Positions 3,001 through 5,023 of a stretch of 10,655 nt of DNA are shown piece after piece. This DNA is from a virus. Lineage: Duplodnaviria > Heunggongvirae > Uroviricota > Caudoviricetes. The position numbers are program-made. The DNA lies in IMG/VR virus record IMGVR_UViG_2690316115_000011, positions 1 to 10,655 of that record; one strand, 5' to 3'. Every line of letters starts with the position of its first letter. The stretch's first letter is position 1.

Positions 3001-5023
3001 CATTGACTGATTTTGTCTGCCCGCATCTGGTACATAATTTTGATTGAAGGTCCTTAATGATTGTGACGTTTCCTTCCCGCTTGGGATATCCATATTTTTT
3101 GTAGCGTAAAAAGGTTACTCCGTTACCAGAACCTTCTTTTCTGACCTTAAATACAATGATGCTTTCCCGTTTATCGATAAAATCTATGAGCTGGTTTCTC
3201 TCCTTTCCTGACAGTTCGGCAAATGTCTTAACTTTTTTAGTAACTTCCGTAAGGCGAACTCCATCAGGCATTTTTTCAACGAAGTTTTTAATCTCTGCAA
3301 GCGGACGCCATAACTTTTGCGGCAAAACTGAAGGCGTGGTCATCAATCACCTCGCCGTCAGTTGTTTTGATTTCCGGTAGCCTGCCGCGTAAATGGCTAC
3401 GTTTGGAAGACATACACCAGTTTCTGGTTGCTTATGTCCAAACTCATTCGCGTACACAATGGCTGCTCGCTCCAGATTGTGTCTGTATTCTTTCTGTTGC
3501 CAGATCACGTCCTGTGCCATGAACTTAATTGGCTTAGCGTCTTCTATGCGCTCAGGCGTTTCGTGAGTACCTTTAGCCTGAATCTGCGCTCTGCTTAGAG
3601 TAGGGCGGTGTAATACTTCTGAACTTATTGCTTCTTCGCGGGCCAGCACGCCGTTAGCTAATGCCTTTGCCTTTAAACGCTCACGACGACGAGAACGTGA
3701 ATTGCCTTTGAACTGAGTTCTGCGTGTCATATAGACCTCCTGATGAACTTTGGTGGTGTGGTAGGTGGGAGACCCATTTCGACCTGTTTCGGCCTACTTC
3801 AATTCGGCAATAGTCCCGCAGGCCTCGCCGCTTTACGTGCGACATATTCCCGTCCATGAACCCTTCACCACACCCCAAAGTTCACTTTGGTTATTGCGCT
3901 TTGTCAGCGCCGTAGATTCATATTTGAATCGTTGTATATTCACCGCCCTGGTGAGTAGTGCGTCCTGCTGATGTGTTTAGTATCACCGCCAGTGGTATTT
4001 ATGTCAACACCGCCAGAGATAATTTATCACCGCAGATGGTTATCTGTATGTTTTTTATATGGATTTATTTTTTGCAGGGTTGAGTGGCTTGGGAGGTGAT
4101 CGAGAGATCTGAATTGCGATGTTTAGTGAGTTGTATCTATTTATTTTTCAATAAATACATTTGGTTATGTGTCTTTAGGTGGGGGGGTGAGGCAAAGAAA
4201 ACCCGGCTCTGTGGCCGGGAATAACATTTAGGAATCAAGGTCAGGTAGCATGATTTTCTCAATCAACGTCAATGCCCTTTGGTCTCGTTCAGCAAAATAT
4301 TTAGGAGCGTACTGAGGCAGCCACACTTCGTTGAAGTGTTGTTTGAAATCTGCAAGATATTCGTTTGGGTATAGACGTACCGGGAATGTCCGGCCATCTG
4401 GGTACTCATGGTTATATGTTGGGAATGTCTTCGGCTCAACCCCCCGGTTGTCACGGAGCCATTGCGAGAAAACCCTACCCTCTGAAATATCAGGGACCAT
4501 TTTTTCTGGCAGCGTATATCCGGCCTGTTCAAGTGGCGCAACCAAGTTAAACGTCAGTTCATTAAGCATAGAAAAGTGCGTATGAGGAACTCTGCCTCGG
4601 TTTGTCATATACCGCTTAAGGTGGATAGGGAGTTCGGCAGGCGCTCTTTCACCTGACATCCACTCACGCACCCATCTCGATACTTGCACTGCAAATTTTG
4701 GAGATAGCCACTGAGCTAAATTAATTGCGATGTCTGGATGAACCCAAGTCCCTTGATTCTCTGCTCTTCCGCCTTTAAATGATTGAATTAACTCCGATAT
4801 GGGAATCCCCATATCGCGTGATAATTCATCAAAAAAATCTTGTGTTGTTTTTAGTCGTGTATAGTCAGCAAGTAGCTTCCCCGCAGACTTGCACATCGCG
4901 GTGGCATTGATGTATCCGTCTTTGGTGCGAAGATGGATGACTTCTCCATCAACTTCTCTAGCGATTAATGCAAGTTGAAACTGTGTCATAAATCATCCTA
5001 TTACGTGAAAAATAAAACAATCA

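Follow-up and report, generated by a model that had tools for sequence, protein, structure and literature searches.

An ancient stem-loop within KilA-N coding sequences, its arms kept complementary by selection

We have analysed a 22-nucleotide palindrome from the immunity and replication region of a lambdoid prophage, and we show that it is one instance of an ancient nucleic-acid stem-loop residing within the coding sequences of KilA-N domains. The stretch of DNA in question (the window, 10,655 nucleotides of the IMG/VR record IMGVR_UViG_2690316115_000011) is identical to sequence of Escherichia coli ML35 (NZ_CP025747), and the palindrome lies at positions 4795..4816, on the minus strand, in the gene of a 253-amino-acid KilA-N protein. 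Across the family the element has a stem of 8-11 bp and a small, A/T-rich loop, and it occupies the codons between the recognition helix and the wing of an APSES-type fold. Selection keeps the two arms complementary; the peptide that they encode, DMGIPIS in this case, is largely a passenger.

Results

Two copies of the palindrome in one prophage

The in-gene copy (CGATATGGGAATCCCCATATCG) has a counterpart close to the right end of the window, the perfect palindrome CGATATGGGAATTCCCATATCG at 10624..10645. No other match with three mismatches or fewer was found in the window, and none of 200 dinucleotide shuffles yielded two matches, so that the pair is far beyond chance, as the original prediction had it. 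The same two copies, and only these, are present in the 24 kb of the source prophage of E. coli ML35. Further full sites or half-sites were absent from the window, including the surroundings of the KilA-N gene promoter.

On the sense strand the in-gene copy reads CGATATGGGGATTCCCATATCG, which forms either a 9-bp stem with a GAUU loop or, counted as a dyad, 10 of 11 possible pairs. Its bases, C GAT ATG GGG ATT CCC ATA TCG, are the third base of R58 followed by D59-S65. As had been predicted, it thus encodes (R)DMGIPIS of the KilA-N domain, within the Pfam match at amino acids 13-112. The predicted RNA fold in a 62-nt context has an energy of -21.6 kcal/mol (z = -4.8). The flanks of the two copies are essentially unrelated in sequence, and the motif is a discrete one rather than part of a duplicated gene segment, in agreement with the earlier view of it. 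There is one caveat: the 18 nt beside the right-end copy, when inverted, show some likeness to the KilA-N codons just after the palindrome (8.2/18 on average and 12/18 at best; p = 0.01 by shuffling, without correction for the 8 tests made).

A number of familiar explanations were considered and rejected. A mobile palindrome of the repetitive extragenic palindrome (REP) or miniature inverted-repeat transposable element type does not fit two copies per 24 kb of prophage and a median of one place per E. coli genome for the region of the right-end copy. An intrinsic terminator is not indicated, as no T-run follows either copy and a terminator scan made no call on the right-end one. If the palindrome were a recombination breakpoint or module linker, the identity between alleles should shift there; we see no such shift, and the bin that contains the palindrome is simply the most conserved. 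A run of seven T lies 14 nt upstream of the hairpin in the sense flank, as in a programmed frameshift signal, and is not conserved in other homologues. Finally, Rfam has no match at the gathering score at either site in the window or at 13 related loci, which speaks against a known RNA family.

Conservation of the dyad among KilA-N genes

We scanned bacterial contigs, one genome per species, and viral contigs for the exact pattern CGATATGGG-N4-CCCATATCG. The scan returned 103 places in bacterial contigs, compared with about 9 expected by chance (estimated as 596 Gb / 4^18), and more than 119 viral contigs matched. Most of the matches fall within KilA-N open reading frames (ORFs) of widely different phyla, among them Nostocales, Dehalococcoidia, Bacillota, Spirochaetia and Proteobacteria. 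Since such a sample is conditioned on the motif, we collected KilA-N genes by peptide patterns outside the motif and obtained 83 distinct genes in this motif-independent way. In about 80 of these 83 the same codons contain a 22-nt dyad that is perfect or nearly so.

Within the dyad segment, synonymous positions are frozen. D59 is encoded by GAT in 62 of 62 cases, I64 by the rare codon ATA in 59 of 59 and S65 by TCG in 52 of 56; P63 is CCC in 71 of 82 genes and CCG in 10 others, which carry the ..TCGG.. variant (together 81/82), and G61 is GGA or GGG in 76 of 80. In every other conserved residue column the share of the top codon is only 0.23-0.77, so the freeze is restricted to the dyad.

Where the sequence does change, it changes on both sides. 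We found more than 20 different dyads, each altered symmetrically, for example CGATATCGGAATTCCGATATCG, CGATACGGGAATTCCCGTATCG, CGAAACGGGAATTCCCGTTTCG and CGATGTCGGAATTCCGACATCG, or CGTTACGGGAATTCCCGTAACG, GTCCATGGGAATTCCCATGGAC, TGATATGGGAATTCCCATATCA and GGAAACGGGATATCCCGTTTCC. These compensatory changes turn the peptide into DVGIPTS, DAGIPAS, ETGIPVS, VTGIPVT or SMGIPID, and the residues are coupled in the way that complementarity predicts: positions 1 and 7 are (D/E,S), (S,D), (V,T) or (A,A), and positions 2 and 6 are (M/I,I), (T,V), (V,T) or (A,A). Even the G-I-P turn is replaced in some genes, by R-I-R (CCGAATTCGG) or by L-K-S (GCTAAAAAGC). The original prediction had made its case depend on the motif being kept in orthologues; it is neither absent there nor freely mutated at synonymous sites, but combines frozen synonymous sites with compensatory changes.

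These impressions can be quantified. In the dyad 95.1% of the cells are paired, compared with 82.5+-0.6% in shuffles and 28-49% in slid registers. Ten of the 11 dyad pairs vary on both sides, and there are 79 compensated cells, compared with 15+-3 in shuffles (0 of 500 shuffles reached this number). The centre, in the main subfamily, either is self-complementary or would become so by a single transition (AATT, GATC, TATA, ATAT, GATT, AATC), and GGT occurs in concert with ATA in 3 of 3 cases (Fisher p = 4e-5, calculated by hand from the counts). A larger conserved helix around the 22-mer, which is predicted for the window gene, was rejected because it is not supported across homologues (-23.9 kcal/mol with native flanks vs -22.5 with swapped or shuffled ones).

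A second reading frame and distant relatives

The same 22-mer occurs at the same place in a group of Bacteroidota KilA-N genes (Pfam E = 3e-19), where it is shifted by one base and read as R-Y-G-N-S-H-I. Relatives of these genes show couplings of their own, again driven by complementarity, with the peptides RYSDVNI, RYANSRI, RYAKKRN and RYRDRDI. For RYSDVNI we predicted the DNA from the protein as CGATATTCA-GATG-TGAATATCG, and exactly this sequence was then found; the DNA of RYANSRI is CGATACGCGAATTCGCGTATCG, and the hairpin of RYAKKRN is nearly the one that the other frame translates as DTLKSAS. As no viral relatives of the Bacteroidota gene were found, we relied here on a protein search and on the contigs that encode the proteins.

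Taken together, symmetric dyads that change amino acids and the use of two reading frames show that selection acts on nucleic-acid pairing and not on the peptide.

The feature reaches still further. Among ten distant phage KilA-N genes (25-53% identity), seven have an 8-10 bp hairpin with an unrelated stem in the same segment, each with a codon-shuffle p <= 0.025 (Fisher combined p = 8e-7); the carriers include Pseudomonas D3 (orf11), Salmonella Oslo, Planktothrix PaV-LD and a Bacteroides phage. Moreover, the Ant gene of the same prophage (ORF6N with P22_AR_C) has a 10-bp hairpin at codons 67-75, a topologically equivalent place. This hairpin, CACAGAGTAG-CTTTTAA-CTACTCTGTG, lies at 16466-16492 of the E. 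coli ML35 prophage locus L001, about 4 kb past the right end of the window (window position = L001 position - 1701). In relatives of Ant the hairpin is kept through compensatory substitutions that change amino acids, and some of them contain two or three hairpin units in tandem and in frame (in L725, LRVALNYSQN-LRVTLSNSQN-LQPSLRGLQI). A second ORF6N gene and a Rha-type (Rha/ANT) gene of the prophage have no significant hairpin, so the feature is common and not universal, and its extension to all related domains was rejected.

Could the arms be kept alike without any function? Template switching is well established as a source of mutation at quasi-palindromes (Ripley; Lovett), and a "correction" that copies one arm from the other predicts both concerted double changes and symmetric centres. 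The tandem units of L725 look like products of replication slippage, and mismatches show no strand bias to speak of, as neutral maintenance would have it. On the other hand, a process of this kind would have to account for a dyad kept in about 80 of 83 genes, in many phyla, in two frames and in distant members with unrelated stems, and retention costs Gly->Arg and Pro->Arg replacements in a turn of the protein. Besides, free-standing, non-coding copies gather single mismatches that stay uncorrected, so that correction alone is not efficient enough. We consider maintenance without function very unlikely.

Stem-loop or two-fold operator

The original prediction had regarded the palindrome as a dyad-symmetric 9+9 bp site for a dimeric DNA-binding protein. 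In the main subfamily the site is two-fold symmetric and its half-sites have a constant spacing. A fixed duplex operator is nevertheless weakened by what is seen outside this subfamily: the loops measure 3-8 nt, the centre is GATG, AAAA or GGAAGA, the stems are unrelated, and in one case the register is shifted. Variable loops, centres that are not self-complementary and unrelated stems are the signature of a stem-loop rather than of a sequence-specific two-fold site.

A duplex operator for a KilA-N dimer, used for autoregulation or for looping from 4795 to 10624, would nevertheless explain several things. It would account for the perfect 22-bp dyads, centre included (AATT, GATC, TATA, ATAT), that dominate the main subfamily, and for symmetric changes of the half-sites, as expected of a dimer that co-evolves with its site; it would also agree with the winged-helix fold of the protein and with intergenic clusters of GGAATTCC-core dyads spaced by 37-40 bp (L027, see below). 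The diversity of the other subfamilies is hard to reconcile with it, as specificity would have to re-evolve in each lineage, and neither the gene's promoter nor the rest of the window offers extra sites. In addition, the two sites do not generally occur together. We consider an operator of this kind improbable, although less so than neutral maintenance.

The host gene and its protein

The KilA-N/BstA gene (4228..4989, minus strand) encodes 253 amino acids, with a KilA-N domain at amino acids 13-112 and a BstA-type C-terminal domain at about 120-237. The former matches Pfam KilA-N (PF04383) with E = 8.2e-27 and 93.6 bits (cut-off 23.8), the latter the PADLOC BstA model with E = 2.5e-20 (amino acids 120-237). 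Identity to the BstA protein of phage BTP1 is 29% (amino acids 133-251 vs 171-302 of BTP1 BstA), and the Pfam domain PF26567 (BstA_C) is present in many homologues. Directly upstream lies a lambda-type cI repressor gene (5021..5734, minus strand); the KilA-N/BstA gene begins 31 nt beyond the stop codon of cI, in the place taken by rexAB in lambda, and this position next to cI implies expression in the lysogen.

An AlphaFold2 model of the protein (predicted local distance difference test, pLDDT, 92) shows a winged helix-turn-helix of the Mbp1/PCG2 type. The top Foldseek matches are 1mb1, 1bm8 and 4ux5, the closest solved folds being Mbp1 and the PCG2-DNA complex, and a profile comparison also matches Mbp1. 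The model has a helix at 47-60, the turn G61-I62-P63, a short helix at 64-67 and strands at 68-71 and 80-83. The profile alignment places helix 47-60 on the part of Mbp1 that usually goes by the name of recognition helix. By this model the hairpin codes for the end of the helix and the turn into the wing, a protein loop that evidently tolerates many sequences and insertions.

Several viral contigs (L279-L286, L117, L125, L144) carry the gene at 99% identity over 757-758 nt in a frameshifted form; the ORF is cut to 114 amino acids, and these pseudogenised copies retain the palindrome.

The right-end copy

The copy at 10624..10645 is non-coding, with no strand assigned to it, and starts 8 nt after the stop of a small hydrophobic ORF of 34 amino acids (MSDDISLAMEGALAVIAVVGVYCLVVFLMDRLGN, 10511..10615, plus strand; RefSeq WP_001278450.1 in E. 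coli ML35). It was conceivable that this copy belonged to a paralogous KilA-N coding sequence. This is not so, for neither a KilA-N ORF nor any other long ORF extends over it. The putative -35 box of the hokD promoter follows it in the source genome at a distance of 13 bp, and the Rfam sok/hokD module begins 47 bp downstream of it, just past the end of the window. We shall call this copy the orphan; it is shown to be the commonest version of the KilA-N element, in a form that is non-coding and stands by itself.

Orphans have two contexts. In the hokD/sok context, 119 of 121 copies are identical. In other lambdoid phages the palindrome comes 12 nt after the stop of a gene, and 6 nt further on there is an intrinsic terminator, followed by ninB. 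Both contexts lie where the replication module borders on the nin region; a megablast search for annotated phage records of either context gave no match.

The original prediction had also suggested a bridging of the two distant sites. This is not supported: of 5426 complete E. coli genomes, 1209 have the orphan region and 139 (2.6%) the KilA-N/BstA gene, a second copy is absent from all 119 viral stretches among the pattern matches listed, and there are no further half-sites in the window. Orphan and gene do not generally occur together, so they are not a fixed two-site device, and an obligate two-site or looping system was rejected, also because there are no other half-sites. The pair in the window is either a mosaic coincidence or a relationship in trans.

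Where, then, does the orphan come from? Judging by sequence, descent from a KilA-N gene fragment is possible. The orphan may be such a relic, or a lambdoid decoy that titrates BstA-like proteins of resident prophages and so mimics aba, the DNA element by which BstA is silenced, or both. The weak inverted likeness of its flank to KilA-N codons would be explained in this way, although the p-value of 0.01 fails correction for the eight tests. A decoy would also fit with orphans being far commoner than the gene, but no more than 2.6% of E. coli genomes have the gene with this palindrome. A clear KilA-N gene fragment in Calothrix (L006, position 2933) has retained its dyad, GGATACGGGAATTCCCGTATCG, upstream of a KilA-N gene, and aba acts in trans from replicating DNA (PMC8585504). 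We regard this origin and role of the right-end copy as doubtful.

Possible functions of the stem-loop

What could recognise the stem-loop? The gene's own product is the only partner that is universally linked to it, and cis sites within the gene of their binder are recurrent in phages, as with the lambda origin in O and aba in bstA. For these two reasons we favour self-recognition: the stem-loop would be a cis-acting element, folded in the transcript or else in DNA that is unwound or extruded, and the KilA-N domain encoded by the same gene would bind it. Such binding is an attractive possibility, and it is supported by the fold, since KilA-N is an APSES winged helix, a nucleic-acid-binding fold. 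In line with it, BstA proteins are known to be silenced by DNA of their own locus (PMC8585504), and clusters of different hairpins of this type are found between genes (L027, L097). Ligand and binder would then stay genetically linked in mosaic phage genomes, and binding would result in negative autoregulation of a potentially toxic regulator. In the case of a BstA-type protein, a replicating prophage might in this way shut off the abortive-infection protein that it encodes itself, much as the DNA-based aba of BTP1 does, and the orphan would be one more site, or a decoy, in the early-right operon. Our confidence in cis-acting self-recognition (autoregulation, and self-immunity for the BstA-type protein) with the KilA-N domain as the binder is tentative and stays short of even.

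There are several points that weigh against it. The hairpin is lost in a few KilA-N genes (L293, L378), and one canonical sequence is common to more than half of the homologues, which is a poor fit with "cognate" specificity. The mismatches are sense G.T in 20 cases (counted) and A.C in about 9 (tallied by hand), mostly at the centre pair; they lean only weakly to the sense strand, and the sequences are not independent. Orphans of the second context often carry single uncompensated mismatches, a sign of decay, and most orphan copies are in genomes that have no KilA-N/BstA gene. The same prophage, as described above, contains a second ORF6N gene and a Rha-type gene without a significant hairpin. 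In BTP1, the aba that was mapped by experiment differs in sequence and lies at the 5' end of bstA, and this bstA gene has no dyad at the KilA-N position. Finally, general machinery, or in part a mutational correction from arm to arm, may be behind the upkeep of the hairpin.

As for general machinery, the hairpin could act in the mRNA as a pause site for the ribosome or for RNA polymerase, as a point of RNase entry or protection, or as a limiter of the expression of a toxic protein, with no part for the KilA-N protein; orphans would then be ordinary hairpins of 3' untranslated regions that stabilise or punctuate upstream messages. A structure that is kept while the sequence diverges and the loops vary is what one would expect, and so are the stable folds predicted for the hairpins (-15 to -22 kcal/mol, z from -3 to -6.6) and a slight excess of G.U on the sense strand, although G.T and A.C mismatches are both present. 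In both orphan contexts the transcribed strand has the palindrome 8-12 nt past a stop codon, and in one of them an intrinsic terminator follows after 6 nt. However, no process is known for which a hairpin would be needed, in many phyla, at one and the same position of a protein fold; a stem of 9 bp hinders ribosomes only weakly; and there is no Rfam family. Furthermore, the 4 nt at the centre stay self-complementary in the main subfamily, including the GGT-ATA cases (Fisher p = 4e-5), which is needless for a loop. We regard a hairpin that serves general machinery as rather unlikely, but among the alternatives it is the one to be taken most seriously.

Self-recognition can be extended into a wider and more speculative proposal. 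KilA-N and ORF6N genes might carry the physiological ligand of their own domain, an ancient self-encoded stem-loop that would be bound as RNA or as extruded or unwound DNA. Its general use would be autoregulation, BstA-type proteins would use it to discriminate self (the replicating prophage) from an invading phage, and free copies and clusters would be decoys or extra sites. In this general form we hold the idea to be rather unlikely, yet worth stating.

Other dyads and hairpins

In the course of the analysis we came across further dyads in intergenic or non-coding DNA. In an Alcaligenaceae metagenome-assembled genome (MAG), five sites are clustered in about 175 bp between genes (L027, 2529-2704), and at another intergenic locus five sites in about 360 bp lie beside a tRNA-Ser gene and an integrase gene (L097, 1486-1842). 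The four to five different dyads of these clusters have a GGAATTC(C)-type core, for example TGAAACGGGAATTCCCGTTTCA, CGATATGGGAATTCCCATATCG and CGTTGCAGGAATTCCCGCAACG, spaced by 37-40 bp; each of them resembles a different in-gene variant of KilA-N, and the adjoining ORFs have no Pfam match. Two AT-rich viral contigs (L106, 5711-6067, and L138, 3718-4074) contain a G+C-rich, apparently non-coding stretch with the canonical 22-mer; at a distance of 35 bp from it there is a related hairpin, which is imperfect, and at 335 bp there is AAAAACGGGAATTCCCGTTTTT. This stretch has no Rfam match and is about 1.4 kb from a T5orf172/MUG113 (GIY-YIG-like) gene. The clusters of L027, L097 and L106/L138 are compatible with binding sites or decoys.

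Contigs of Alcaligenaceae MAGs (L042 and L086, position 23-44) have the canonical 22-mer followed by GCGGGTTCGAG(T/C)CCCGCGGGCGGC, which is like the T-arm and acceptor end of a tRNA. The hairpin would then sit as a long variable arm; ARAGORN calls no tRNA, and the contigs start just upstream. In Calothrix (L006, 2005-4160), the C-terminal 44 residues of a KilA-N protein are almost a duplicate of the ribbon-helix-helix tail of an adjoining ParG-like gene next to parA.

Within the window itself, an O-like replication gene (6724..7800) contains two strong dyads, ATCATCCTTTTATGATAGATATAAGGATGAT at 7092-7122 and GGTCCATGGCGAAAAAATCGCCACGGACC at 7230-7258. They are probably parts of a replication origin that, like the one of lambda, lies within the gene of the initiator. 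An 11-bp hairpin, CCAACCATCCGGTAACTCTGGATGGTTGG, is located at 10166-10194 within a DUF551 gene.

Discussion

Implications

KilA-N domains are widespread in phages, in large DNA viruses and in fungal cell-cycle factors, and the bacterial and viral members are almost without known ligands. The 22-nt hairpin, together with its natural compensatory variants, offers a concrete and cheap object with which to look for such ligands, and it is a candidate route to self-recognition by those BstA-type prophage defence proteins that have a canonical KilA-N domain. Part of what looks like a conserved protein motif of KilA-N (DMGIPIS and its variants) is set by base pairing from arm to arm. This is an unusually clear case of nucleic-acid complementarity driving the covariation of amino acids, in two frames and in many phyla. 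It also calls for caution in modelling and annotation, in that conservation in the dyad segment should not be taken as a sign of protein function.

Comparison with known systems

In a search of the literature (8 million papers) nothing connected KilA-N with a palindrome or with a hairpin, and the sequence itself did not turn up. A close parallel is offered by BstA, which is encoded by prophages, acts in abortive infection and is silenced by aba, a DNA element within its own locus; in BTP1, aba comprises 63 bp that span the bstA start codon and has terminal CCCGCC direct repeats and no dyad (PMC8585504, Owen et al. 2021). Like aba in BTP1 bstA, the palindrome is a short nucleic-acid element within a KilA-N(-like)/BstA locus just downstream of the prophage repressor gene; it too is linked genetically to the protein that would be acted on, and it too varies between homologues. 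Unlike aba, the stem-loop goes with the canonical KilA-N domain, whatever the C-terminal domain. GC-rich direct repeats of the BTP1 type do not flank the start codon of the window gene. Given this, the differences in sequence and position and the lack of a dyad in BTP1 bstA, the palindrome is not the known aba, and we have rejected its identity with the published element.

The lambdoid replication origin lies inside the O gene, that is, dyad-symmetric repeats are found within the coding sequence of the DNA-binding protein that uses them. As there, a cis site in the gene of its binder would keep both together in mosaic genomes. On the other hand, the iterons of lambda are multiple, sequence-specific duplex sites of known function, whereas KilA-N genes have a single stem-loop whose structure is kept throughout the family. 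A similar arrangement is that of parS, a palindromic site within parB/spo0J, the gene of its own binding protein, which is conserved across phyla. While parS is conserved in sequence and also present at many other chromosomal places, the KilA-N stem-loop drifts in sequence with compensation and is fixed in its position in the fold.

Integron attC sites, the hairpins of IS200/IS605 elements and of REP sequences and the target hairpins of diversity-generating retroelements (DGR) are conserved in structure and recognised as folded single strands. The KilA-N element shares with them the precedence of structure over sequence, the short stems and the frequent location of copies just after stop codons. 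These hairpins, however, are extragenic or at the ends of cassettes and work together with a recombinase, a transposase or a reverse transcriptase. The KilA-N element is linked to none of these enzymes, and there are only two copies of it in 24 kb.

The cre element of picornaviruses, finally, is a selected, cis-acting RNA stem-loop within a coding region, at which synonymous sites are frozen. The KilA-N stem-loop likewise overlaps codons and freezes their synonymous sites. Structures of the cre type belong to one virus lineage, whereas the KilA-N stem-loop follows a domain family through bacteria and phages and in two frames. Cis elements in coding regions are already known as a kind; what appears to be new is a stem-loop that goes with one family of protein domains through different phyla and reading frames and sets part of the family's "conserved motif".

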